This document shows, one piece after another, positions 1,811-32,252 of a DNA stretch of 64,000 bases. The notes beneath the pieces were generated by a model. The model had not been told where the DNA came from. It did not search any database and saw only the letters and a program-made list of their open reading frames with translations. The stretch's first letter is position 1. Each line of letters starts with the position of its first letter. Both the position numbers and the translations under genes were made by a program. Source of the DNA: a virus; IMG/VR virus record IMGVR_UViG_3300027754_005987, positions 32,001 through 96,000 of that record; one strand, 5' to 3'.

Positions 1811-3196
1811 TTATCTAGATTCAAATCTAAATAAAGCTATTGTTACATATGTTCCATCTTGTTTTTGGAATGTATGATGTTTAAGTTGAACTTGTCCTTT
1901 TTTAAATTGATTAAGACCTTTTTTTTTCATATATCTTCCAGCAGCATCAGCAAAAGCTGCGTCCCAAGAAAAACCATGGTTTTGTGATTGACCAATACCG
2001 TATTGAACATCATCTTTTTTAGATTCTTCTTCAAACTCATTTTTTATATCATCAAATGAATAATTTCTACTACCAATATTTTTTAATTCAGTTTTATCTT
2101 TTATATTTGATGCAGTTTGTTTTAAATCATCTTTAAATTGAGCTAGTTTCTCACCTGCCCCAGTTTTAAGTTGAGCTAATGTCTCACCTGCTCCAGTTTT
2201 AAGTTGACTTATTTTATCTTTAAATTTATCTTGAGCAATTGCATCTTTACCGCCAAATAAACTACTAGCAGCTAAACCAACACCAGCAGCGATATTAGCA
2301 AATTTACCTTCACCAATATTTTCTAATTCTTCTCTTAAAAGTTTTTTAACTAATATTCTAGACTCATTTGTTTTATTTTTTTTGCTCCAGTATTTTTCAG
2401 CAGCTTTTTCCATCTTATCTAATCTATCATAATAATCTGGAAATTCAGAAACATGGTCCATAGCAATTTCATTCTGTTTTTCCTCATCACTAGTATGTTC
2501 TGATTCAATTTTTTCACCTTTTTTTATTTGTGATTTTAAATCTTTAACAGGTACATCAAATTTTTTAGCAATATCTTTTATGGTTAACTTATCAGATTTA
2601 CCACCTTTTAATTTGTTCTCGTTAAGTGTTTTAGTTTTCATAAATTCTTCAAATCCTTTTTTATCGTTATCGCTGTTTAGTATATAAAACTTACTTCCGT
2701 TTTTAGCAACTAGTTCATCAGAAGCACCAGTTTTTTTAACGTATAAATAATCATATTTATTAAACACTTGTTCATCATTATATTTGTTTATTTCGTGTTG
2801 TCTTGGCGCTACTCTATCTTCTTTAGGTATATCTGAATGGTTATATTCATTAACCGCTAAATAATAATCATATTTATCATCAAAAACTTTAACATTTGAA
2901 AAGTCTAATAAAACAACATAAACTTTTCCTTTTTTATCTTCTGCATATTTTTTAGAATAATCAAAGTTTTTGGTCAAATAAACACCAGCACCTAATTTGA
3001 AAATACTGTTTGGGTTAAATTGTTCAAATTCTTCTTTACCTATTTCATCACCTCTATAAAAAAAAGATGGATTCTTATAGTTTAACTTTTCTTTTATTAA
3101 AAATCTTATGTAATTAATATAATCATCAATTGTCCCAATATCTTCAAAAGTAAAATTACTGTAGACACCACCAAAATCTATTAAATTGTTTTCCAT
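1811..3196 (-). CDS. Modular protein: ART-like domain, DUF5661-like module, internal signal-peptide-like segment and C-terminal domain
   Basis: FYRG...GAGVYLT...YA (ADP-ribosyltransferase-like); KGGKSDK...EHT...IAMDH.E.PDYY module; hydrophobic GKFANIAAGVGLAASSLFGG..AIAQ; modules separated by LNE/LRE/IGE. Confidence 0.6.
   Translation of the reverse strand: MENNLIDFGGVYSNFTFEDIGTIDDYINYIRFLIKEKLNYKNPSFFYRGDEIGKEEFEQFNPNSIFKLGAGVYLTKNFDYSKKYAEDKKGKVYVVLLDFSNVKVFDDKYDYYLAVNEYNHSDIPKEDRVAPRQHEINKYNDEQVFNKYDYLYVKKTGASDELVAKNGSKFYILNSDNDKKGFEEFMKTKTLNENKLKGGKSDKLTIKDIAKKFDVPVKDLKSQIKKGEKIESEHTSDEEKQNEIAMDHVSEFPDYYDRLDKMEKAAEKYWSKKNKTNESRILVKKLLREELENIGEGKFANIAAGVGLAASSLFGGKDAIAQDKFKDKISQLKTGAGETLAQLKTGAGEKLAQFKDDLKQTASNIKDKTELKNIGSRNYSFDDIKNEFEEESKKDDVQYGIGQSQNHGFSWDAAFADAAGRYMKKKGLNQFKKGQVQLKHHTFQKQDGTYVTIALFRFESR
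2138..2207 (-). repeat. 33-bp tandem duplication in coding sequence (QLKTGAGE[T/K]LA x2)
   Basis: ttgagctagtttctcacctgccccagttttaag followed by ttgagctaatgtctcacctgctccagttttaag. Confidence 0.9.
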
Positions 3197-10043: not shown

Positions 10044-12362
10044 ATGAATAAATTAGATAAAGCGTATACAGACCTAATTCAAGATATACTTGATAACGGA
10101 GTTAAAAAAGAAACAAGAAATGGGGGAACCATAAGCGTATTTGGAAGACAGATTAAACATTCAATGAAAAACGGATTTCCATTGCTCACCACAAAGAAGA
10201 TGGCGTTTAAGACAATGGTTACCGAATTGTTATGGTTTTTAAGGGGCGATACAAATATTAAATTCCTTGTTGATAATAATTGTCATATTTGGGATGGAGA
10301 TGCTTATAAACGATTCTTAAATGAAACTATTAAAATTGAACCTGTGGAAGTAAAGGAACGAGCAATTACTCAATTATTGAATAATAAAGAATCAAAAGAA
10401 GAATTTATCAACAAAATCAAAACAGATGATGAGTTTGCTGAGAAGTGGGGTGATTTAGGTCCTGTATACGGCAAGCAATGGAGAAATTGGGAACATAATA
10501 CTGGACCTTCTTGGGGAAAGGGAGGAACCTATATAGAATCAAAGAAAACTCAAATAGACCAAATTGCAAACCTAATCCGTGACCTTAAAAACAATCCTGA
10601 TTCAAGGAGACTAATGGTTAATGCTTGGAATGTCGCGGATGTTGAAAGCGGTAGTATGGTCTTGCCACCTTGTTTTACTTCAGATATGTTGGTTGCGTGT
10701 ATAGATGGATATAGAAAAATATCTGAAATAACTACTAATGATTTGGTATTAACCGAAGATGGGTCTTATCAAAAAGTTTATGAATTACATGAAACTAATT
10801 ATAATGGTGATTTATTAAAAATTAAAACACATGGTAATAGTAAATCAATTAACGCAACACCTAACCACCCATTTTTGGTTAGAGATAAAGGGTATATTAA
10901 CGCTAGTGAAATTACGAAAAACGATTATTTAGGTATACCAATTAATAAAAATGAAATTATACCATCATTTAAAACGATAATAAAAGATAACCAATATTCT
11001 GAAAAAGAAATTGAAACTGTTTTAGATGATAAAGATTATTGGTATCTTATGGGGTATTTTTTAGGTGATGGGTGGTTAATAGAATCAAAAAGAGAAATTT
11101 ATTTTGCTATTAATGATATCCAAGTTGATGAAATACTACCTAGATTAAATAAAATTATTGGGTTAGCAAAATTGAATAACTCTGGTGTAAACTGTAAAAA
11201 ATATGTTGGTAGAAAACAACAATTATTTGAAATATTATCAATGTTCGGTAAGTATGCAGATGGTAAAATAATACCACAATTTATACATGACGCACCTAAA
11301 CATTTAATTGAAGAATTTATTAAAGGGTATCAAAAAGCTGATGGTTGTATAACTAATGATGGTATAACTTATACCACTGTATCTGATAATATAGCATATG
11401 GGTTACAATTATTATATACCAAATTAAACATAAAAGCGTCAGTATATTATCAAAAAAGACCTAATAAAACATTTATAGAAGGTCGTGAAGTTAATCAAAA
11501 AAATACTTACTCAATCAATGTTTACCAACAAAAAAATAAATCTAAAAATTATATTTTTGATAATGATTATTTGTGGTTATGCGTTAAGAGTATTGAAAAA
11601 TATAATTATGATGGGTATGTGTATAATATTTCAACTGAGAATAACCATACTTACAACGTTTTTAATTTAGTTAACCATAATTGTCATTATGGATTTCAAG
11701 TTTATACAAGAGAGTTGAGTCAAGAAGAAAGAAAACAAATATTTGAAGATAGCGGATACGTTTGTGATGTATGGCCATTTAATGGTGACTGGCATGGTGA
11801 ATATGATGGATTTGGAATACCACGCAGAGCAATCTCTTTAATGTGGAATCAACGTAGCGTAGATACTTTTCTCGGTTTGCCATTCAACATAGCATCTTAT
11901 GGGTTGTTATTGGAAATCATTGCTAAAGCAGTTAATATGGTTCCTGATGAATTGATTGGTAACTTGGGTGATACTCATTTATATTCAAACCATATTGAAC
12001 AAGCTAAAGAACAAATTGGTAGAGAATTAAGAACTGATGAAAGAGTTTGTAAGGCATATGAAAATAATAAATTAGATACATCTTTATTTAAAGAAGGTCT
12101 TAGCGATGCTGAATTAGAAACTATTTGCGATTCATTTGGTATTCCTAAAAGAACGAGAGAACCTTATGAATTACCTAAACTAAACATTAATACAGAGTTT
12201 TGGTCGACAGAAGGTGGTTCATGTGGCGAAGGCCCTTTAGATGCTATTAAAGTATTCGAATCATTTAAAGATGACAACTTTTGTAAATGTTTACTAGAAG
12301 AAGATATTCAATTAAACAATTATCAATCACACCCAACAATTAAAGCACCATTAAGTAATTAA
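10044..12362 (+). CDS. thyA: Thymidylate synthase ThyA containing an intein
   Basis: [36 protein letters not shown]|[27 protein letters not shown]; 435 aa spliced. Confidence 0.97.
10671..11681 (+). mobile_element. Intein (337 aa) with LAGLIDADG endonuclease at the ThyA catalytic Cys
   Basis: Starts CFTSDMLV, block B ATPNHPF, YFLGDG and GYQKADG motifs, ends LVNHN with Cys+1. Confidence 0.93.
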
Positions 12363-12794: not shown

Positions 12795-12818
12795 TAAAAA
12801 TTTTAAATAATTTATAGA

Positions 12819-12826
12819 TATTTATA
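12819..12826 (+). promoter_or_regulatory. Putative late promoter TATTTATA
   Basis: 12 nt upstream of ATG 12839. Confidence 0.6.
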
Positions 12827-12838
12827 ATAAAATAAAAT

Positions 12839-14548
12839 ATGGAAAATAGAAATAAAATAACACCAGTAGGTCTTAAAGGTAAAGAAATCAATGCTAGAAT
12901 GATTGAATTAATGGGTATTAAACCTATTAATGAAAATCACACAAAATCAGTTGTTGAGTTAACCAAAATTGGACCAGACGGAAATGCTTATGCAATTGTA
13001 AGAGAGAATCATGAGTATTATATTAAAACAACCAATAAAAAATCAAATATCATAACTGAAGATTTCAATTATATTGGTGGTTTACAAAACAAAAAATCAG
13101 AAGCTTATCCTTCATATGCAAAAGCTATAAAACATTTAAACCTTAAATTTAATTCATTAGCTGAATCATTTGATAAAGGGCATAATATCAATGTATTTGA
13201 AAACGATAATCTTTTAAACGAAAACGCATTTGCTGGTGGGTTTGCTAATCACCCAAAAAGTGGTGGTTTCACAGGTGAAGGTAATCTAGAAGGTAATACT
13301 CCATTATTTGAAGCTGAAGAAGAAAACAATCCATGGGCTATTTGTACTTCAAGTGTTGGTCGTGAAGACAAGGATAAATACGAAGCTTGTGTTATGTCTG
13401 TTAAAAAAGAAAAAGGTATTGAAGAATCTATGACTGAAAATGAATACTGCGGTATGAATGAAGCAGTTGAATTATCTGAAGCAGAAAAAGCTATTCAAGA
13501 AATGATGACTAGAATGGAAGATGATGATGATTATATATACGGTAAAACTGATGATGTATATAATTATGATAGCGAAAAAGACCCATTTGAGGATTATGAT
13601 GATGATGAAATTGATTCGTTAGTTGGTATTAACAAAGAAAAAAACATTGATGAAGCATTTAAAACACAAGATGAATTAAACCAATTTGCTGGTCATGACG
13701 ATTATCAGTGGTACATCGTTAACCCGAAAGGAGAAATAGTTGGTGGTAATGAATATTTACGTGACGCATTTGATAGTTTTGTTGAGTATTCTACTCAAGG
13801 TGAAGAGGCAAACTATTTATATGTTAATGATAGTGAAAATGAAGATGCAGAAAGTCTTCACGATATGGCTGATAACTTTTTATCAAGTTATGGTTATGGT
13901 GAACCTGGAGATGATTTGGATGATTATGACCAAGGTGAATTAGATGAATTTGTTAGTTATTTTTCAACTAAAATACCATTTGCCAGATTTGATTATGGTG
14001 AAGGTGAAGAATTGGGTGACCAATTCATTAATGGTTTTAGAATTGTTAAGAAAGATGATGGCATGTATGAATCTAAAAAAGAAAAATTATCTGATAAAGA
14101 AATAGCTGCTAAAGAAAAGCCATATAATAAAATAACTCAAGCTGATATATTAAATTTAAAAGGTGTTAATTTGGATGAAATGATGGCTAGAATGGAAGGT
14201 GAAGAAGAGCCTGCTAAGGCCAAAGATATGACAGACGAAGAGCGAAAGAAAAAAGATGACGACTATTACCGTTCCACCGGGCATGCAACTGGCGACTGGG
14301 GCCCTCCCGGAGATAGAGATTATGGCATGGTGAAGGTTGATAATGATGATGATGATGAAGAAGAAGAAGAAGAAGAAGAAAAGCCAACGCTAGGACACAA
14401 AATAAAGAGCTTTTTAGGATTCAAGAAATCAAAAATCAACAAAGAAGATAAAGCTTTGAGTGCTATTGAAGAAAGCATTGAAAGATTAGACGCTTTACTA
14501 GAAGGTGAATTAAAAAAAAAAGCACAAACGTTAACAAAAAAGAAGTAA
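12839..14548 (+). CDS. Acidic modular head-region protein; upstream half of a putative frameshift pair
   Basis: 569 aa with many (L/I/M)xE junctions and an NPWAICT module; ends over an A10 run and A_AAA_AAG. Confidence 0.8.
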   Translation: MENRNKITPVGLKGKEINARMIELMGIKPINENHTKSVVELTKIGPDGNAYAIVRENHEYYIKTTNKKSNIITEDFNYIGGLQNKKSEAYPSYAKAIKHLNLKFNSLAESFDKGHNINVFENDNLLNENAFAGGFANHPKSGGFTGEGNLEGNTPLFEAEEENNPWAICTSSVGREDKDKYEACVMSVKKEKGIEESMTENEYCGMNEAVELSEAEKAIQEMMTRMEDDDDYIYGKTDDVYNYDSEKDPFEDYDDDEIDSLVGINKEKNIDEAFKTQDELNQFAGHDDYQWYIVNPKGEIVGGNEYLRDAFDSFVEYSTQGEEANYLYVNDSENEDAESLHDMADNFLSSYGYGEPGDDLDDYDQGELDEFVSYFSTKIPFARFDYGEGEELGDQFINGFRIVKKDDGMYESKKEKLSDKEIAAKEKPYNKITQADILNLKGVNLDEMMARMEGEEEPAKAKDMTDEERKKKDDDYYRSTGHATGDWGPPGDRDYGMVKVDNDDDDEEEEEEEEKPTLGHKIKSFLGFKKSKINKEDKALSAIEESIERLDALLEGELKKKAQTLTKKK

Positions 14549-16239
14549 ATGAAGTAAAATATAAGTTGAAGCTAGCTGCTGCACAACCTGCGGCAGCTCC
14601 AGCTCCAGCTGAACCAGCTGAACCAATGGCTGATGACGAGTTAGATTTTGGTGGTGAAATGGAAACATCATCTGATGAAAAACCAGCAAGCGATAAACCG
14701 TTTGATGATACACCATTTAATGCTGGTGTAGAAGCCGATGAAGATACAGACCCAAAAAAATTCATCGAACAACTAACTGGAAAGTTAGGACAATCCCTAA
14801 GAAAATATACAGAAGAACAAGGACAACCAGATTTCGAATTAGAAAAATTCGCAATTAATTCTTTAATATCAGCAACTCATACATCTGAAATGGATGCGGA
14901 AGATAGAAAAGATATAATAAAAAAAGTTAATACAGCTGGAAGTAAAAATGATAGCGATAAAGAAGATACTACAAATGATAGTAACCCTGATGATGGTGCT
15001 GATAACAATAGTGCTGATGAGTTTGGTGGTGACATGGGTGGTGATAACTCTGCTGGTGAAGAAGATTTGGAAGAAACAGTATTTGAAAATTACTTCTTAG
15101 ATAAGCCTAAGAAAAACAATATGTTTCAAGAAGGTTCTAATGATATTTTAGACGAAGAAGGTTTGTGGGATAATATTCGTAAAAAAAGAGCTAGAGGTGA
15201 AGCGCCAGCAAAACCAGGTGATGAAGATTATCCAGATAAAAAACAATGGAATCGTCTAACTAAAGAAGCAGATGGAGAATCAAACAATTATATGTTCTGG
15301 CAAAATCTTAAAGGAATTTATGATGATGCAACTGAAATCTTGGGTATGAACCAACAAGAGGTTGATGCATTGATTGCTGATGGTCATCAATGGGCTTTAG
15401 AACACGTTATCACATCAAAAGATGATGTCGAAGAAGTTTATCATTTTGTTGAAGCTACTATCGAAGGTGCTGAAATGAATGAAGGTGAGCACGAATCAAA
15501 CAATTATATGTTTTGGTCAAGTTTAAAAACCATTCAACACGCATCTAAAGAATTATTAGAAATGGATTATGATAGTGTTGATGCTTTATTAAGTGATGGT
15601 CATGGATGGGCTTTAGACCATATAGCAACAGCTGCTGATGATATGGAAGAAGTATATCACTTCTTAGCAAATACATTAGACGCTTATGATGGTGATACTG
15701 AAGGTGGTTATGAAGATGAACATGGTTCAGTTGAAAATGTTGGTTTAAATGAAGCTGAATACCATGGTAAAAAAGTTAAATTAGGAAAACCAACAAAAGG
15801 TGATGTTAAAAAATTCAAAGTTTACGTTAAAAATAAAAAAGGTAAAGTTGTAAAAGTTAATTTTGGCGACCCTAATATGGAAATAAAAAGGGATAATCCA
15901 AAAAGAAGAAAATCATTTAGAGCTAGACATAAATGTGCACAGGCTAAAGATAGAACAACGCCTAAATATTGGTCTTGTAAAATGTGGTCAACAAAACCAG
16001 TTTCTAAAATTGTTGGTGAAAATTTGGATGAGATTGAAAAAACTAGTATATTTGATAAAAATTATTTGAAGTATAAACTTCAAGAAACATTTAATCAAGA
16101 AGATATTATGGATAAACCAATGATTCAACCAGAAGTAAAACCAGCACCAGACAAAGTGCAACCTATTGCGCCAAGTAGAAAAAATAAACCATTTTTACCT
16201 ACACCTAGTGTTAAACCAGACCCAAAAGCTAGTAAATAA
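14509..16239 (+). CDS. Modular head-region protein; downstream (-1 frame) half of the frameshift pair
   Basis: Frame open from 14509 (after TGA 14506-14508); the track starts it at TTG 14566; duplicated NYMFW module and a basic C-terminal EAEYHGKKV...FRARHKC...YWSC module. Confidence 0.75.
   Translation: MKKKSTNVNKKEVNEVKYKLKLAAAQPAAAPAPAEPAEPMADDELDFGGEMETSSDEKPASDKPFDDTPFNAGVEADEDTDPKKFIEQLTGKLGQSLRKYTEEQGQPDFELEKFAINSLISATHTSEMDAEDRKDIIKKVNTAGSKNDSDKEDTTNDSNPDDGADNNSADEFGGDMGGDNSAGEEDLEETVFENYFLDKPKKNNMFQEGSNDILDEEGLWDNIRKKRARGEAPAKPGDEDYPDKKQWNRLTKEADGESNNYMFWQNLKGIYDDATEILGMNQQEVDALIADGHQWALEHVITSKDDVEEVYHFVEATIEGAEMNEGEHESNNYMFWSSLKTIQHASKELLEMDYDSVDALLSDGHGWALDHIATAADDMEEVYHFLANTLDAYDGDTEGGYEDEHGSVENVGLNEAEYHGKKVKLGKPTKGDVKKFKVYVKNKKGKVVKVNFGDPNMEIKRDNPKRRKSFRARHKCAQAKDRTTPKYWSCKMWSTKPVSKIVGENLDEIEKTSIFDKNYLKYKLQETFNQEDIMDKPMIQPEVKPAPDKVQPIAPSRKNKPFLPTPSVKPDPKASK
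14510..14548 (+). other. Putative programmed -1 frameshift / slippage site
   Basis: tta aaa aaa aaa gca (A10 at 14512-14521) and in-frame A_AAA_AAG (14536-14542); the -1 frame is open from 14509 to 16239. Confidence 0.65.
15277..15663 (+). repeat. Duplicated protein module with 216-nt period (ESNNYMFW...DGHxWAL.H....DD.EEVYHF)
   Basis: gaatcaaacaattatatgtt(c/t)tgg at 15277 and 15493. Confidence 0.9.
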
Positions 16240-18989: not shown

Positions 18990-19024
18990 GTCATTTATAA
19001 TAAACGTTTTCTATGTTTCTAGTA

Positions 19025-19032
19025 TATTTATA
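19025..19032 (+). promoter_or_regulatory. Putative late promoter TATTTATA
   Basis: 13 nt upstream of the terL ATG. Confidence 0.6.
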
Positions 19033-19045
19033 GTTAAAAAATAAT

Positions 19046-21493
19046 ATGTTAACAACCAATGAAATATTCAAAGAGTATGCAAAATGTTTAACAAGTCCAG
19101 TTTATGCAATTGAGGCTTATCTAGAGACATTTGATAAAACTCAAGAAGGGTTTGTTCCATTTAAGCTTTTTCCTAGACAAAAAGAAATTATTTACGCATA
19201 CGAAAAACATAGATTTAATTTAATTACTAAACCTAGACAGGCTGGGGTATCAACAACAACAGCTGCATATATGTCAATAAAAGTTGGTTTTGCTGACGAA
19301 CAAAATCCAGAAGCTATTCTAATTATTGCGAATAAGCAAGAGTTAGCTTTTGAGTTTTTGGCTAAGATTAAAGATTTTTTATCACAATTACCTAGATGGG
19401 TTTGGGGTGATGAGTATTATGGTAATAGTAAGAATGAAAGTAAATCTATATTCTTAACAGACTCTAAAAAAGAAATTAAACTACCTAATGGTAGTCGTGT
19501 AAAAGCGGTAGCTACATCTAAAGATGCCTTGCGTGGATTTACCCCAACTTATCTTGTAATGGATGAGGCTGCCTATATTGATAATGGTGATGAAGTATTT
19601 GGTGCGGCCCTTACAGCTTTAGGTTGTTTAACTAAAGACTCATTGATATTAACCGAAAATGGTTTAGTTGAGTTAGATGAATTGGTTACTGAAAAAGATA
19701 AATTAGGGTTTACTGATTTAGAAACACCACATATGGTTTGTAATAAAGACGGTATTTTAACACCAGCAACCCAAACATTTGTAAGTGAGTATGGTGAAAC
19801 TTTTAAAATAAAAACAAAATTAGGTATAGAGTTAGAGGGTAGTTGGAAACATCCATTATTAATTAATAGAAATGGTGAAGAAGTTTGGGTACGAATGAAT
19901 GAATTAGCTGTTGGTGATAAACCAATAATTAATTATGGTCAAAATTATTTTGGTGAAAATGATTACGTGATTAATGATAATGATTATATTTATACGTCAA
20001 ACGAATTATTAAAAGCAAAAAAAGAAATTTTAATTGATTATATTGGAAAATTATTTTTTGGTCGTGATTATTTTATTAACACAAATAAGAACACCTTAAG
20101 AAGGGTCCAATCTTTATTATTTAATATGGGTATTATATCAATAATAGATGGGGATATGTTAGTTAAAATAACCTTTACTCACGATTTTAATAATATAATT
20201 ATTGATGAGATAATTGAAATAACTAAGGGGGAAGATTATACGTATGATTTACACGTACCAGAAACTAATTCATTCATATCAAATGGTATAGTTAGCCATA
20301 ATACTGGGGGTAAAGCTACGCTAATATCAACTCCAAGGGGTATGGATGCGTTATATTACAAAACTTACGACCAAGCAAAGAGCAAAAAAAATAACTTCAA
20401 TATCATTGAAATGAAATGGTATGAGGATTTGCGTTATAATAAAGGCCTTAAATGGCTTAAAGGTGACCAAGTTTTTGAAGAATACGAATTTACCTTTGAT
20501 TCATATAATAAAATGATTGATGATGGATGGAAACCAACATCATTTTGGTATGAGGAAATGTGTAGAGGTATGAACAATGATGCTAAAATGATAGCACAAG
20601 AGTTAGACGTTTCATTCATAGGTTCTGGTGGTAACGTTATTAGTGAAGAATATATTGATAATCAAAATAAGTTTAATGTAAAAGACCCAATAATGATGTT
20701 AGGGTCAGAACAAGAAACATGGATATGGGAAGAACCAAAAGAAGGTCATCAATACATACTCGGATGCGATGTATCTAGGGGTGATGGTGAGGATGCTTCT
20801 ACTATTGTTATTTTAGATTTCACTACTATGGAACAAGTTTTGGAATATCAAGGTAAAATACAACCAGATTTACTTGCGCAATTAGTTGAACAATATGGTG
20901 AAATGTATAAAGCATATGCAGTAGTCGATATTACTGGTGGTATGGGTGTTTCTACAGTATTAAAACTACTTGAATTTGATTATAAGCGATTGCATTATGA
21001 TTCTTTAGGTGGTAAAGTATTATCAACTAGACAAAGAGAAATGGTTTCTTATGGCAAAGGAGATAAAATACCTGGTTTTCAAGCAACAAATGTTCGTTTA
21101 CCAATGATTTCAAATTTGGAATATAGTATTAGAACAGATACTGTTAAAATACGTTCCAGACGACTTACATCGGAATTAAAGACATTTATATATAAAAATG
21201 GAAGACCAGACCACATGGATGGTTATCATGACGATTTAATTATGTCTTTGGCAATGTGTTTATGGGTTTTGGAACATTCTTTTAAAAACCTAGAAAAGTT
21301 AGAAAAACAAACAAAAGCAATATTAAATAGCTGGGCTGTTGGTTCTAGTAATAGACCAACTATCACAACTACAGATAGCAACACAAAAAAAACAATAACA
21401 ACGGTAAACCAAAAACACCCTGCATATAAAAATGTTCAAGACCCTACTGGTCAGTATGCGTGGTTATTTAGTGGTCAAAATAAAATGAAATAA
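19046..21493 (+). CDS. terL: Terminase large subunit (T4 gp17-like) containing an intein
   Basis: KPRQAGVST, LVMDEAAY, ISTPRG, nuclease GCDVSRG and HDDLIM; 589 aa spliced. Confidence 0.95.
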   Translation: MLTTNEIFKEYAKCLTSPVYAIEAYLETFDKTQEGFVPFKLFPRQKEIIYAYEKHRFNLITKPRQAGVSTTTAAYMSIKVGFADEQNPEAILIIANKQELAFEFLAKIKDFLSQLPRWVWGDEYYGNSKNESKSIFLTDSKKEIKLPNGSRVKAVATSKDALRGFTPTYLVMDEAAYIDNGDEVFGAALTALGCLTKDSLILTENGLVELDELVTEKDKLGFTDLETPHMVCNKDGILTPATQTFVSEYGETFKIKTKLGIELEGSWKHPLLINRNGEEVWVRMNELAVGDKPIINYGQNYFGENDYVINDNDYIYTSNELLKAKKEILIDYIGKLFFGRDYFINTNKNTLRRVQSLLFNMGIISIIDGDMLVKITFTHDFNNIIIDEIIEITKGEDYTYDLHVPETNSFISNGIVSHNTGGKATLISTPRGMDALYYKTYDQAKSKKNNFNIIEMKWYEDLRYNKGLKWLKGDQVFEEYEFTFDSYNKMIDDGWKPTSFWYEEMCRGMNNDAKMIAQELDVSFIGSGGNVISEEYIDNQNKFNVKDPIMMLGSEQETWIWEEPKEGHQYILGCDVSRGDGEDASTIVILDFTTMEQVLEYQGKIQPDLLAQLVEQYGEMYKAYAVVDITGGMGVSTVLKLLEFDYKRLHYDSLGGKVLSTRQREMVSYGKGDKIPGFQATNVRLPMISNLEYSIRTDTVKIRSRRLTSELKTFIYKNGRPDHMDGYHDDLIMSLAMCLWVLEHSFKNLEKLEKQTKAILNSWAVGSSNRPTITTTDSNTKKTITTVNQKHPAYKNVQDPTGQYAWLFSGQNKMK
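19625..20302 (+). mobile_element. Short intein (226 aa) with eroded endonuclease region
   Basis: Starts CLTKDSLI, ends YDLHV...NGIVSHN with Thr+1; no intact LAGLIDADG pair. Confidence 0.9.
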
Positions 21494-21785: not shown

Positions 21786-23831
21786 ATGGCAGATAATAAA
21801 AATCTAACAATATTTCAGAAACTAGGGCAAGTATTAAATCCTAGTAACGTTAAACAATCACAAACAACATCAACTCAACGTTATAATATAGGTAATGGTG
21901 AATTACTTAAAACAGATAACAAAGCTGATTTTGAGAGAGCTAAACTACAGGCTCAACAAAATAAATATTTGGGTCAAGTATGGAAAAAGGTAGAGAGTGG
22001 ATTGTTTCAACAATCAATTAATTATGAAACAACTCGTATTGGTTCTTATTCCGATTTTGAAGCTATGGAGTTTTATCCAACAATAGCAGCAGCATTAGAT
22101 ATTATGATGGAAGAGTCTACAACGCTTAATCAGCATGGTAGAATGCTTAATGTTTATTCTGATAGTAATAGAGTTAAAACTATATTAGAAGATTTATTTT
22201 TTAACAGGTTAGATTTACACACTTCATTACCAATGTTTACTAGAAACACTTGCAAATATGGTGATAATTTTGTTTATCTAAATATTGATGATAAAAATGG
22301 AATAATTAGTGCTAAGCAATTACCTAATTACGAAATGGAAAGAAGAGAAACTGGATTATTTGATATGGTATCTGGAAGAGAAACACCAAATACATTGGAG
22401 AAAAGTTCATCAACAGATAAAGTTAAGTTTTTTTGGAGAGGTCGTGATGTTGAATTTAATTCATGGCAAATTGCTCACTTCCGTTTATTAGGTGATGATA
22501 GACGTTTACCTTACGGTACATCTGTTTTAGAGAAGTCTAGACGTGTTTGGAAACAATTAATACTATCTGAGGATTCAATGCTTGTTTATCGTGTGACTAG
22601 AGCACCAGAAAGACGTGTATATAAAATCTATGTCGGTAACATTGATGATGCTGATGTTGAACAATACGTAAATACAATTGCTGACAGATTTAAAAGGATG
22701 CCAATAACTGACCCACAAACTGGTCAAATGGACCTTAGATATAATCAATTATCTAATGACCAAGATTATTTCATACCAGTTCGTTCTGAAAATGCGCCAA
22801 CACCAATTGATACATTGCCTGGAGCAACTAACTTGGACCAAATTGCTGATATAGAATACTTACAAAAGAATTTATTCACATCACTTAGAGTACCAAAACC
22901 ATTTTTAGGTTTTGAAGAGGCTGCTGGTGATGGTAAAAATTTAGCTTTACAAGATATTCGTTTTTCTAGAACGATTAATAGAATACAACAATCTATGTTA
23001 CAAGAACTTAATAAGATTGCTATTATTCATTTATATATCTTAGGGTTTGAAGAGGATTTAGATAATTTTACACTTACATTAAATAACCCATCAACTCAAG
23101 CTGAAATGCTTAAGGTTGAACATACTCAACTTAAAGTTACTTTATATAAAGATGCTGTATCTGATGCTGGAAATGGTTTTGGTACTATGTCTATGACAAG
23201 AGCACATAGAGAGATTCTAGGATGGTCTGATGATGAAATTAAGAAAGATTTACTAGAACAAAGAATGGAGAAAGCAGCAGCTGCTGAATTAGCTAATTCT
23301 AGTGCAGTAATAAAACATACTGGTATGTTTGATGTTGTAGATAAAATATATGGCGATTATCAGAAAGCGCTTGAAGGTGGTGGAGCTGGTGAAGAAGGTG
23401 CTGGTGGAGAATCCTCTAGTTCTGGAGGTGGCGGTGGCGGCCTAGGTGGCTCATTCGGTGGCGGTGGAGTAAGTGGTGAAGATTTAGATTTTGGTGGTGA
23501 GACAGGTGCTGAAGAAGAAGGTGGTGCAACAGCTGAAGCAGGTGCAGAAGCAGGTGCAGCTGAAGTAGGTGCTGAAGCAGGTAGTACTGAAGGGTTAGCA
23601 GAATCTATAATGAAAACTGAAAAATTATTGATAGAAAGAAAAGACGCAATATCTAAAAAATTGGATGCTAGAACAAAAAAATACCAAGGAAGATTTGTTA
23701 CTCTTGTTGAGTCAATAAAACCAGATGAAAAAATAAAAGAAGAAAAAGTTAAAATTTACGATAAAAACATAAAAGTAAATCAAAATATCAATACAATGAT
23801 TGATGATATTAATAAAATGTTAGATGAATAG
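21786..23831 (+). CDS. gp20: Portal protein (T4 gp20-like)
   Basis: LSEDSMLVYRVTRAPERRVYKIYVGN, DYFIPVR, IDTLPG, DIEYLQKNL, QDIRFSRTI; Gly/Glu/Ala-rich tail. Confidence 0.93.
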   Translation: MADNKNLTIFQKLGQVLNPSNVKQSQTTSTQRYNIGNGELLKTDNKADFERAKLQAQQNKYLGQVWKKVESGLFQQSINYETTRIGSYSDFEAMEFYPTIAAALDIMMEESTTLNQHGRMLNVYSDSNRVKTILEDLFFNRLDLHTSLPMFTRNTCKYGDNFVYLNIDDKNGIISAKQLPNYEMERRETGLFDMVSGRETPNTLEKSSSTDKVKFFWRGRDVEFNSWQIAHFRLLGDDRRLPYGTSVLEKSRRVWKQLILSEDSMLVYRVTRAPERRVYKIYVGNIDDADVEQYVNTIADRFKRMPITDPQTGQMDLRYNQLSNDQDYFIPVRSENAPTPIDTLPGATNLDQIADIEYLQKNLFTSLRVPKPFLGFEEAAGDGKNLALQDIRFSRTINRIQQSMLQELNKIAIIHLYILGFEEDLDNFTLTLNNPSTQAEMLKVEHTQLKVTLYKDAVSDAGNGFGTMSMTRAHREILGWSDDEIKKDLLEQRMEKAAAAELANSSAVIKHTGMFDVVDKIYGDYQKALEGGGAGEEGAGGESSSSGGGGGGLGGSFGGGGVSGEDLDFGGETGAEEEGGATAEAGAEAGAAEVGAEAGSTEGLAESIMKTEKLLIERKDAISKKLDARTKKYQGRFVTLVESIKPDEKIKEEKVKIYDKNIKVNQNINTMIDDINKMLDE

Positions 23832-23854
23832 TCACTTTTTTAAATAAGTAATGA

Positions 23855-23862
23855 TATTTATA
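23855..23862 (+). promoter_or_regulatory. Putative late promoter TATTTATA
   Basis: 14 nt upstream of ATG 23877. Confidence 0.6.
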
Positions 23863-23876
23863 AATTAAAATAAAGT

Positions 23877-25775: not shown

Positions 25776-25807
25776 AAACCATAAACACTAGTGTTTATGG
25801 TTTTTTT
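25776..25807 (+). terminator. Intrinsic terminator
   Basis: aaaccataaacac-ta-gtgtttatggttttttt. Confidence 0.85.
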
Positions 25808-25844
25808 ATTTTATACACATATTTATTATATAAACGCAAACTAT

Positions 25845-26567
25845 ATGCATAATTATAACGAATTAAAAGTATTGAAACGTCATGAAACAGGGACTGGTGT
25901 TTTAATCGAACATGATGCTGGATTTATTAGTCCTGATGAACCTAGGAATCAACCTTTTATCAATGAGATAAAAAAATTAGATACAGGTAGCAAAATGACT
26001 ATTGTTGAACCGCTTATTGTATACGTTGTATTACAGAAGTATGGTATCCTTAACCGTAATGGTAGGGTTTATCCAGAAAGCATATTAAAACAACAAGATA
26101 GGTTATATCAACAAGCAATCAAAGAAAGAAGAGCCGTAGGTGAATTAGACCATCCAGAATCTAGTGTTATTGCTGGTGATAGAATATCACACAATATAGT
26201 TGAGACATGGTGGGAAGGTCATACACTTATGGGCAAAATGGAGATACTAATGACACCTGGATATATTAATTATGGTATTGTATCAACAAAAGGAGATGAA
26301 GTCGCTAATCTATTAAGAAACAGAATTAAAATAGGTGTATCATCTAGAGGTGTTGGTTCGCTTAAAGAAGGTAAAAATGGTGAACAAATAGTACAAGACG
26401 ATTTTGAGATAATATGTTGGGATGTTGTAACAGCACCTTCAACACCAGATGCATGGATTGGTAGGAGTTCTGAAGAAATTAGACCGTATGTAGAAAACGT
26501 ACAAAAGAAAAAACCATTAATTGAAGGTGGGTTAAATGATAAATTAGATAAATTTTTATTAGATTAA
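25845..26567 (+). CDS. gp21: Prohead core protein protease (T4 gp21-like)
   Basis: NRNGRVYP, GELDHP, ISH, GVSSRGVGS, WDVVTAPSTPDA; start moved to ATG 25845, downstream of the terminator and of TATTTATT (25820-25827). Confidence 0.93.
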   Translation: MHNYNELKVLKRHETGTGVLIEHDAGFISPDEPRNQPFINEIKKLDTGSKMTIVEPLIVYVVLQKYGILNRNGRVYPESILKQQDRLYQQAIKERRAVGELDHPESSVIAGDRISHNIVETWWEGHTLMGKMEILMTPGYINYGIVSTKGDEVANLLRNRIKIGVSSRGVGSLKEGKNGEQIVQDDFEIICWDVVTAPSTPDAWIGRSSEEIRPYVENVQKKKPLIEGGLNDKLDKFLLD

Positions 26568-27929: not shown

Positions 27930-27987
27930 CAATAACAATAACAAAAAAAAAAAAAAAAATAAAAAAAACAAAAAAAAAAAACAAATT

Positions 27988-29826
27988 ATGTCACATTTAT
28001 TAACATCTGGACAAGTTGGAAATATTGGTTTAAACCATATGAAAGCTATCCGTAAAGAAACACAATCTAAATGGGATTCTTTAGGCTTCTTAGAAGGTCT
28101 TAGAGGTCACGTAAAAGAAAACATCGCTCAATTATATGAAAACCAAGCGTCTACATTATTAAGCGAGTCTACAACAGCTACTAACTCTGGTTCTTTTGAA
28201 ACAGTTGTTTTCCCTATCGTAAGACGTGTTTTCTCTAAATTATTAGCTAACGACATCGTGTCTGTACAAGCTATGAACATGCCAATTGGTAAATTATTCT
28301 TTTTCGTACCACAAACTTCTAGCCGTGTTGACGGTGCTGGTGTTGCTGGTAGTGATTATACCTCTACAGCATCTTCTGATGTTTATGGTACTACTTACTC
28401 TGCACACACTTCATTTGCATCTAACGGAATTCCTTCATGTGTATTGCCAGCTGCTGGAACATGTGTTGTAACACCTTTCGAAGCTAAAAACTTGTACGAT
28501 ATTTTCTACAATGATGGTTTATTTGATAACTCTAAAGGTACTTTAACTATCCGTACTCACGCTAGCTTACCTAAATTAACTTTTAATTCTAATGGTGATT
28601 TTAGTAACCCTGTAGTTGGTACTGGTACTTTGCCTACTGCTACTGATGGTTCATTAAGAGAAATCATCGTTAACGTTTCTGGTTTTTCACCAAACAACAC
28701 AAACAAACAAGTAATGACAGGTGCTGATGGTAACCAAATGGATACTGAATCTTTCTTAGCTTCTTTACAAATTGTTACTACTGCTAACATTTTAGACAGA
28801 GACGCTAACGTAGTTGTTGCTTCAAACAAATCTGTACCTTTTAGAGTTGTTACTCAAAAATATGGTAGAGGAATTGTTGATTATAATTCTATAACTGATG
28901 CTACAGGTACTATTTATTTAGCTTTAGACTTGACTCACCCAGTTGGAACAACTGCTACTGGTACTGCTGCTGCTGGTACTGCTACTTATGATGGTTATGT
29001 TGGTGCTTCTGCTACAACTGCATCTGCATTTACTTTTAACGCTGCATGGGCTGAATATGCTACATTAGAGCTTGAAACCGAAATGGGAGAAGTATCTTTC
29101 AAATTAGACGAAGTTGTTGTTGCTGTTGAAGAAAGAAAATTAAGAGCTACTTGGTCTCCAGAGCTTGCTCAAGACGTTAGTGCTTTCCACAACATCGATG
29201 CTGAAGCTGAATTAACAGCTATGTTATCTGAACAAGTTGCTGCTGAGATTGACCGTGAAATCCTTAGAGATTTGCGTAAAGCTGCTGCATGGCAATTGAG
29301 ATGGGATTACAATGGTTGGAGAAAAGCTTCTACCGCTGCAAGTCCATATACTCAAAAAGAATGGAATCAAACTTTGATTACTCGTGTTAATCAAGTATCT
29401 GCTCAAATACATAAATCTACTCTTAGAGGTGGTGCTAACTTTATCGTTGTATCTTCTGAAATCTCTGCTATTTTTGATGATTTAGAATATTTCCACGTAA
29501 GTGATGCTAACCCAGAGCAAGACCAATACAACATGGGTATTGAAAGAATTGGAACTTTAAGTGGTCGTTACCAAGTGTATCGTGACCCTTATGCACCAGC
29601 TTACTCAGTAGTTATTGGACATAAAGGAAAATCATTATTGGATACTGGTTATATCTACGCACCATACGTGCCGTTACAATTAACCCCAACAATGTACAAT
29701 CCATTTAACTTTGCTCCAGTTAAAGGTATCATGACACGTTACGCTAAAAAAGTTGTGAACAATAGGTTCTATGGCCATGTAAGAGTGGACGGTGTACCTA
29801 CATTCAATGTTAACGAATTACGTTAA
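27988..29826 (+). CDS. gp23: Major capsid protein (T4 gp23-like)
   Basis: PIVRRVF, VSVQAM, RKLRATWSPELAQD, AEAEL..MLSEQVAAEIDREI, YAPYVPL, GIMTRY. Confidence 0.96.
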   Translation: MSHLLTSGQVGNIGLNHMKAIRKETQSKWDSLGFLEGLRGHVKENIAQLYENQASTLLSESTTATNSGSFETVVFPIVRRVFSKLLANDIVSVQAMNMPIGKLFFFVPQTSSRVDGAGVAGSDYTSTASSDVYGTTYSAHTSFASNGIPSCVLPAAGTCVVTPFEAKNLYDIFYNDGLFDNSKGTLTIRTHASLPKLTFNSNGDFSNPVVGTGTLPTATDGSLREIIVNVSGFSPNNTNKQVMTGADGNQMDTESFLASLQIVTTANILDRDANVVVASNKSVPFRVVTQKYGRGIVDYNSITDATGTIYLALDLTHPVGTTATGTAAAGTATYDGYVGASATTASAFTFNAAWAEYATLELETEMGEVSFKLDEVVVAVEERKLRATWSPELAQDVSAFHNIDAEAELTAMLSEQVAAEIDREILRDLRKAAAWQLRWDYNGWRKASTAASPYTQKEWNQTLITRVNQVSAQIHKSTLRGGANFIVVSSEISAIFDDLEYFHVSDANPEQDQYNMGIERIGTLSGRYQVYRDPYAPAYSVVIGHKGKSLLDTGYIYAPYVPLQLTPTMYNPFNFAPVKGIMTRYAKKVVNNRFYGHVRVDGVPTFNVNELR

Positions 29827-31913: not shown

Positions 31914-32252
31914 TTATTGAAATTCTGGTCCTTGTTCACAAATTGTTGATTGTATTTGCGTCCAATAAGTATCGGCTTCATCTGGCATACTATCACCAGA
32001 CATATAACCTGTTTTTACTTGACCGTCAATTTTAATTTGTTCTTGTTTAAGATTTTCCAAAGGCGCATGTATTTTTTGCATAATTCTAGTTCTAGTTGCT
32101 TCATCAATACCTTTCATAGCTTCCTCAACATAATGCAATGCTTCCGAATAAGAATTAATAGTCATTTTGTTACAAATAGTTTGAGTAGCTTTATTCATAT
32201 TCTGACCATCAATCATTTGTTCTCTAAGTTTTTCCCTAATAAAGTTTTTCAT
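31914..32252 (-). CDS. Hypothetical protein with MKNFIREKLRE leader
   Basis: 112-aa ORF. Confidence 0.75.
   Translation of the reverse strand: MKNFIREKLREQMIDGQNMNKATQTICNKMTINSYSEALHYVEEAMKGIDEATRTRIMQKIHAPLENLKQEQIKIDGQVKTGYMSGDSMPDEADTYWTQIQSTICEQGPEFQ

Follow-up and report, generated by a model that had tools for sequence, protein, structure and literature searches.

The DNA analysed here, hereafter the window, is a stretch of 64,000 nucleotides (nt) that spans positions 32,001 to 96,000 of the IMG/VR virus record IMGVR_UViG_3300027754_005987, a viral record of 109 kb with 28.5% G+C and an estimated completeness of about one-third, whose source is an uncultured, freshwater, T4-like phage. 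It carries two consecutive open reading frames (ORFs), ORF1 and ORF2, whose frames overlap across a run of ten A's. The features found at this junction are the following, in window coordinates:

12839-14548, plus strand: ORF1 in the zero frame, encoding the predicted short isoform of 569 amino acids (aa)
14509-14548, plus strand: two-frame overlap of 37 nt, from the opening of the -1 frame (14509) to the zero-frame stop (14546-14548)
14512-14521, plus strand: A10 run, the conserved putative shift site, read in the ORF1 frame as TTA AAA AAA AAA GCA
14521-16239, plus strand: -1-frame part of the predicted long isoform, 572 codons and a stop codon; the ORF2 annotation starts at TTG 14566
14536-14542, plus strand: in-phase A_AAA_AAG heptamer, lineage-specific, a possible secondary -1 site
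14545-14571, plus strand: V-N-E and then V-K-Y-K-L-K in the -1 frame, a conserved (L/I/V/M)xE motif; the first module of ORF2 begins here
14546-14548, plus strand: ORF1 stop codon TAA

An initial annotation of this DNA had proposed that ORF1 ends across both the A10 run and the heptamer, that the -1 frame stays open from 14509 to 16239, and that a frameshift fuses the two ORFs. The coordinates were confirmed in the sequence: the -1 frame opens at 14509, contains TTG 14566 and ATG 14626, and reaches its stop at 16237-16239. A fusion through the run would comprise 561 codons of ORF1, up to the end of the run, and 572 codons of the -1 frame, giving a protein of 1133 aa.

A scan of IMG/VR with ORF1 rendered 80 loci with 40-81% identity to its N-terminal domain, 79 of which contain both halves; these provided 67 non-redundant junctions. 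With the ORF1 homologue as zero frame, that of ORF2 occupies the -1 frame in 79/79 loci, and in all of them the opening of the -1 frame precedes the ORF1 stop by 10-61 nt. The A run is kept at every one of the 67 junctions, as A9 in nine, as A10 in 56 and as A11 in two. Such a recurrence of run, offset and frame overlap far exceeds chance. The distance from the end of the run to the ORF1 stop varies between 2 and 24 nt, and the -1 offset is retained at all 79 loci despite the corresponding indels. The end of the run coincides with a zero-frame codon boundary at 61 of the junctions; at the other six the phase differs and the outcome is the same. Conservation of the offset and of an A-rich site among homologues, which had been put forward as a check on the proposed frameshift, is thus clearly positive, and the fusion of both ORFs is supported. 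As for the two slippery sites originally proposed, the A10 run stands, whereas A_AAA_AAG at 14536 occurs at only 6/67 junctions (the window, L006-8 and L035/42, all of one sublineage) and was rejected as the main shift site. Locus L084 (PLXT01000052.1, 103 kb), which derives from palsa/permafrost and is included in a Methanobacterium metagenome-assembled genome, likewise has both genes, an A9 run and the -1 offset; the contig probably belongs to a phage and was misbinned. It was the sole contig obtained when genome contigs were scanned for the DNA of the in-frame relative P0006. Scanning viral contigs with P0205, a family member in which both halves are in frame, rendered mostly contigs already found, and no match to ORF1 was obtained among cultured phages (tblastn against 50,697 phage records).

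The evidence argues against an independent start of ORF2, since at 20 of the 67 junctions the -1 frame offers no start codon (ATG, GTG or TTG) as far as 90 nt beyond the ORF1 stop, the TTG at 14566 varies synonymously, and the -1 frame is under selection already at the run. That TTG encodes the Leu in a conserved (L/I/V)xE-x-K-Y-K-L-K motif, a position at which TTG, CTG, TTA and CTA are all found. The -1-frame peptide is conserved from the first codon past the run, with variation at third positions. In a sublineage in which the ORF1 stop is located one codon past the run, K-K-K-S-L-x-E-T-K-A-D-G-M-S-T-G-L-F is conserved from the run onward, and the column entropies at -1-frame codon positions 1, 2 and 3 are 0.36, 0.28 and 1.04. 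Such a stretch is translatable solely by ribosomes arriving from ORF1. The sequence ahead of the TTG had been described as coding and as including a VNE junction; it does appear to be coding, and VNE can be refined to (L/I/V/M)xE, which is universally conserved at a distance of 1-2 residues ahead of K-Y-K-L-K. Homologues neither have their halves consistently in frame nor share a conserved start of ORF2. On this comparative evidence, ORF1 and ORF2 can be taken as one gene with a short and a long predicted product, and programmed recoding of some form at the A run is very probable.

The coding of the run bears on the nature of this recoding. In these genes AAA accounts for 82% of the Lys codons, from which about 55% of KKK tripeptides would be expected to be coded by AAA only; all-AAA coding is found in 67/67 of the junction KKK, compared with 2/48 of the other KKK tripeptides. 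Moreover, the base preceding the three Lys codons is an A across seven different codons (TTA, GTA, ATA, GGA, CCA, TCA and CAA). Outside the junction, the 67 gene pairs have no A run of ten or more, while they tolerate 72 in-phase A_AAA_AAA and 17 in-phase A_AAA_AAG heptamers (89 in total). Because all-AAA KKK is avoided elsewhere while heptamers are tolerated, selection appears to act on a run length of 9-10 and not on a heptamer. Bacterial RNA polymerase is reported to slip efficiently on runs of nine A/T, and its RNA-DNA hybrid measures 9-10 bp (PMC5009743). The comparative data are undecided as to the slipping machine and lean to RNA polymerase, which we infer, rather than the ribosome, to be the one that slips. 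We assign a probability of roughly 0.5 to the fusion being made by RNA polymerase slippage on A10. Standard decoding would then yield the ORF1 protein of 569 aa. In a fraction of the transcripts RNA polymerase would slip on the A10 template and add one A, and ordinary translation of these A11 transcripts would pass from ORF1 into the -1 frame to give the 1133-aa fusion, so that both isoforms would carry the conserved N-terminal domain.

In RNA run X5, the one RNA library that contains this phage, contigs match both ORFs at 100% identity and none of them crosses the run; contigs, moreover, drop minor variants. Two points weigh against slippage of the polymerase. Runs of A7 to A9 are present elsewhere in these genes, including seven A9. 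Furthermore, the comparative data are compatible with a ribosomal mechanism, because every A run of at least nine also contains an in-phase A_AAA_AAA heptamer and because ribosomes are reported to slide on long A tracts and on iterated AAA codons in E. coli (PMC4363877).

The fusion could thus be made by the ribosome on a uniform mRNA, either by tandem -1 slippage on the A_AAA_AAA heptamers within the run or by tRNA-Lys sliding along them, an alternative that we regard as possible, if somewhat doubtful. In-phase A_AAA_AAA heptamers start at 14512 and 14515 in the window, the run ends on a zero-frame codon boundary at most junctions, and all of the comparative evidence for a fusion fits a ribosomal origin equally well. 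A slip at A_AAA_AAG 14536, the classical heptamer of dnaX and insertion sequence (IS) elements, could contribute in the sublineage that has it. Seven A's would suffice for the ribosome, yet 67/67 junctions keep 9 to 11, the last base of the codon ahead of the Lys codons among them, and 89 in-phase A-rich slippery heptamers are nevertheless tolerated elsewhere in the same genes. The phase of the run differs at six junctions with the outcome unchanged. Neither consensus pairs nor a conserved RNA structure were detected by RNAalifold among the homologous junctions at the distance of a stimulator, 5-9 nt downstream of the run. A predicted hairpin is found at 14566-14608 (plus strand), directly 3' of the KYKLK codons, with a minimum free energy (MFE) of -21.9 and a z of -4.6. 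It occurs at the same place in most loci of the frameshift clade (L001-L079; mean z of -2.6 in 62 loci), with stem sequences that differ between loci in a manner resembling covariation; in L165-L168, whose halves form a single ORF, it is weak or missing. Between 24 and 137 nt separate the hairpin from the run, and it accompanies the KYKLK motif and not the A run, a position unlike that of a frameshift stimulator. The genome also lacks Shine-Dalgarno (SD) use; an upstream SD-like GAAGGTGA was considered as a stimulator and rejected, since many homologues do not have it and the genome does not use such sequences.

A profile search among 1.84 billion representatives rendered 989 family clusters at 50% identity, from which 260 members were classified. 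The ORF ends within 14 residues past KKK in 213 of them, continues past KKK without a change of frame into the junction peptide (SLxE-KYKLK) in seven, and contains the N-domain together with ORF2 modules but no KKK in 22; the remaining 18 end otherwise, some being possibly incomplete. The seven in-frame members (P0006, a close relative with 76% identity, P0205, P0207, P0209, P0216, P0219 and one more) were read from protein sequence and may be homopolymer errors. At the DNA level, L165-L168 have one ORF each, of 660-756 aa, with no A run of eight or more, in which L-N-E and a K-K-F-V-I-K motif come directly after the N-domain. A quick tree, rooted at its midpoint, places the fused forms without KKK together at one end and the in-frame KKK forms in scattered positions within the frameshift group. 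This grouping suggests that the ancestor had a single ORF and that the slippage site arose once, long ago.

The scattered in-frame members could instead reflect phase variation at the DNA level, replication slippage leaving a part of the population with an in-frame A11 gene, and a break of the X1 unitig at the run also hints at heterogeneity among reads. We consider this improbable: the out-of-frame state is that of 213/220 KKK-bearing members and of all 67 junctions checked in DNA, the in-frame cases may be homopolymer errors, and a heritable switch would bring a lytic phage no obvious benefit over a fixed ratio. Two separate genes, with ORF2 translated from TTG 14566 or ATG 14626 or by reinitiation and the run kept only because it encodes KKK, are if anything less probable still. 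The TTG and the ATG lie 20 and 80 nt downstream of the ORF1 stop, the leader before the TTG is A-rich like the other leaders of this genome, and closely spaced or overlapping genes are common in phages; against this stand the junctions with no start codon, the synonymous variation of the TTG as a Leu codon, the onset of -1-frame selection upstream of any possible start, the avoidance of all-AAA coding by KKK elsewhere, the existence of single-ORF relatives and the constancy of the -1 offset across indels. Lastly, although homopolymers are error-prone and the close relative P0006 is in frame, a miscalled A11, which had been named as the finding that would undo the frameshift, or a recent inactivating mutation in a decaying gene, is effectively refuted, since the A10 is ungapped in Logan contigs both of X1, the probable source run, and of X3, which comes from an independent study and a slightly different strain, and the same state is found in 67 independent, diverged assemblies (40-81% protein identity) with both halves under purifying selection.

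Polymerase slippage on the A10 run can be compared with several known systems. In E. coli dnaX and in IS elements, -1 ribosomal frameshifting takes place on A_AAA_AAG. The junction described here resembles these in its slippery sequence of Lys codons, in the -1 direction and in what would be a fixed ratio of two products, and differs from them in that the conserved element is A9-A11 instead of a heptamer, with neither an upstream SD-like element nor a properly spaced hairpin. Structural products of phages are fused by frameshifting in the lambda G/GT tail chaperone and in the T7 capsid proteins 10A/10B. Here too a late phage gene would produce, in a set ratio, short and long forms with a common N-terminus, kept across relatives, but with a homopolymer in place of a mixed heptamer and with a very long, modular extension; furthermore, unlike lambda G/GT, the gene pair is located upstream of terL and the portal gene and not between the genes for tail tube and tape measure. 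Programmed transcriptional slippage on a 9-nt A/T run is reported for Thermus thermophilus dnaX (PMC5009743). The phage gene shares with it a coding-region homopolymer as long as the RNA-DNA hybrid, an N-terminus common to two isoforms and no need for an RNA stimulator, whereas slippage in this uncharacterised phage gene is predicted to add 572 residues rather than to shorten or restore a product. In Shigella spa13 and mxiE, plasmid-borne secretion-system genes, transcriptional slippage was demonstrated experimentally (PMC5009743). As in these, slippage on an A/T run would provide a C-terminal extension used in the assembly of a macromolecular machine; the present case differs in concerning a phage gene and in having been predicted by sequence comparison. 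A Campylobacter phage case (PMC2853527) was also considered and set aside, as it concerns an unrelated methyltransferase gene.

The window also encodes a T4-type head module:

19046-21493: large terminase (terL), intein-containing
21786-23831: portal protein, gp20-type
25791-26567, plus strand: prohead protease, Peptidase_S77 (gp21-type; E 1.7e-24; phrog_207)
27988-29826: capsid protein, gp23-type

Inteins split two genes of the window, the large terminase (19046-21493; Intein_splicing) and thymidylate synthase (10044-12362; Intein_splicing and LAGLIDADG_3). The start of the major capsid gene (27988) is immediately preceded by an extreme A-rich leader with A17 and A12 runs (27943-27981). Gene leaders in this genome are A-rich and have no Shine-Dalgarno sequences, and the absence of such sequences from all of the genes in the region suggests a host that does not use them, possibly a Bacteroidota-like one. 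A ATATTTATA-like motif, a candidate late promoter, is located about 15-20 nt 5' of ORF1, of terL and of a gene of 263 aa following the portal gene (12800-12838, 19010-19045 and 23840-23876), and is absent before ORF2 and before the three genes downstream of ORF2. As to other homopolymers, only three of at least nine nucleotides are found inside long ORFs in the whole 109-kb genome. One of them is an A9 on the coding strand at 1919-1927 (minus strand), in ORF 1811-3196 (minus strand), where the alternative frame is not open. In addition, a T9 run is located outside the window, 2044 nt ahead of its first position (genome 29956-29964; L170 957-965), inside an ABC-ATPase-like ORF, in the -1 frame of which there is a GNAT-like ORF; the latter has an ATG of its own (L170 1020), overlapping the end of the ATPase ORF, and therefore a frameshift at the T9 run is unnecessary.

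ORF1 consists of a conserved N-domain (residues about 1-130), with 34 invariant columns among 60 sequences, a variable acidic middle, and a conserved C-terminal helix followed by KKK. Its first 32 residues (12839-12934, plus strand) end in P-I-N-E (residues 29-32), with a nearly invariant E32; P-I-N-E is family-wide and present also in the single-ORF relatives L165-L168. This segment could be a targeting sequence or pro-peptide ending in IxE. ORF2 is made up of modules that we designate by their motifs: KKFIEQL, GLW, two NYMFW, KVYV (which matches phrog_7595) and a PxPKA tail. The KVYV module (15721-16005; ORF2 residues about 394-474) occurs in other viruses as a small stand-alone gene, phrog_7595, carried by Pelagibacter, Roseobacter, Methylophilales and Flavobacterium phages and by a Nitrosopumilaceae virus, and is thus a module that travels widely.

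The prohead protease gp21 of T4 is specific for (L/I)xE, the sites at which the head-internal proteins IPI-III and Alt of that phage are processed. When the 16 residues preceding each module were searched for (L/I/V/M)xE, an extension of (L/I)xE in which Val and Met were added by us, the motif was found before KYKLK in 63/63 cases (with the Glu at 1-2 residues from the module), before GLW in 10/10 (1-3 residues) and before NYMFW in 26/32 (mostly 2-8 residues), compared with 31% of random 16-residue windows. Because a gp21-type protease is encoded in the head module and (L/I/V/M)xE is found at module boundaries, the long protein is probably, by analogy, a head-internal modular polyprotein cut by that protease. 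The closeness of the Peptidase_S77, portal and gp23 genes is consistent with this. The N-terminal part would carry the protein into the prohead, where the protease would cut at (L/I/V/M)xE; a cut at the site directly past the junction would free the ORF2 modules, and the frame change would determine how much short cargo is made relative to long cargo. The likeness to the T4 internal proteins extends to the gp21-type protease encoded nearby, to (L/I/V/M)xE flanking the modules and following a short conserved N-terminal segment, and to small ORF2-type modules standing alone as genes in other phages. T4, on the other hand, uses no frameshift for its internal proteins, and there is no similarity to them in sequence or fold.

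That absence of homology counts against a role inside the head, as does the frequency of (L/I/V/M)xE in these Glu-rich proteins. The N-domain has no Pfam, PHROG, PDB or fold match that names a function: its AlphaFold model (pLDDT 65) was compared by Foldseek with PDB and BFVD and no named function was obtained. For either half, no function-naming match was found in Pfam (at E up to 1), PHROGs, a PDB sequence search or the ESM Atlas; the only hits were uncharacterised viral proteins and leads to DUF5824, DUF6321 and DUF5661 with scores below 0.9.

Programmed frame changes and homopolymer slippage are already well known. What is new, as far as the literature shows, is this gene family, how widely it is conserved, and the evidence that run length is under selection; no report of the gene family or of the site was found in full-text literature searches. 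A broader scheme, which we advance tentatively, is that in a whole clade of uncultured T4-like freshwater phages, some of them jumbo phages (300-360 kb), stuttering of the polymerase on A10 doses a long cargo polyprotein against a short form, both entering the prohead by means of their common N-domain, and that this arrangement evolved from a single-ORF ancestor by insertion of the variable region and the slippage site. If this is true, double-stranded DNA phage morphogenesis would here include a conserved instance of programmed transcriptional slippage.

In hundreds of phage contigs from metagenomes this gene is broken in two by gene callers, and the long product is missing from every annotation, since 213/260 members end just past KKK. 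Recognising the site would restore the 1133-aa protein and would provide a clean, widely replicated natural system for the study of selection on homopolymer length, in which the question of polymerase versus ribosome slippage becomes directly testable in a phage. If the long protein is indeed cargo of the head, the gene would moreover show how phages can both dose and diversify their internal proteins by means of modules flanked by protease sites.

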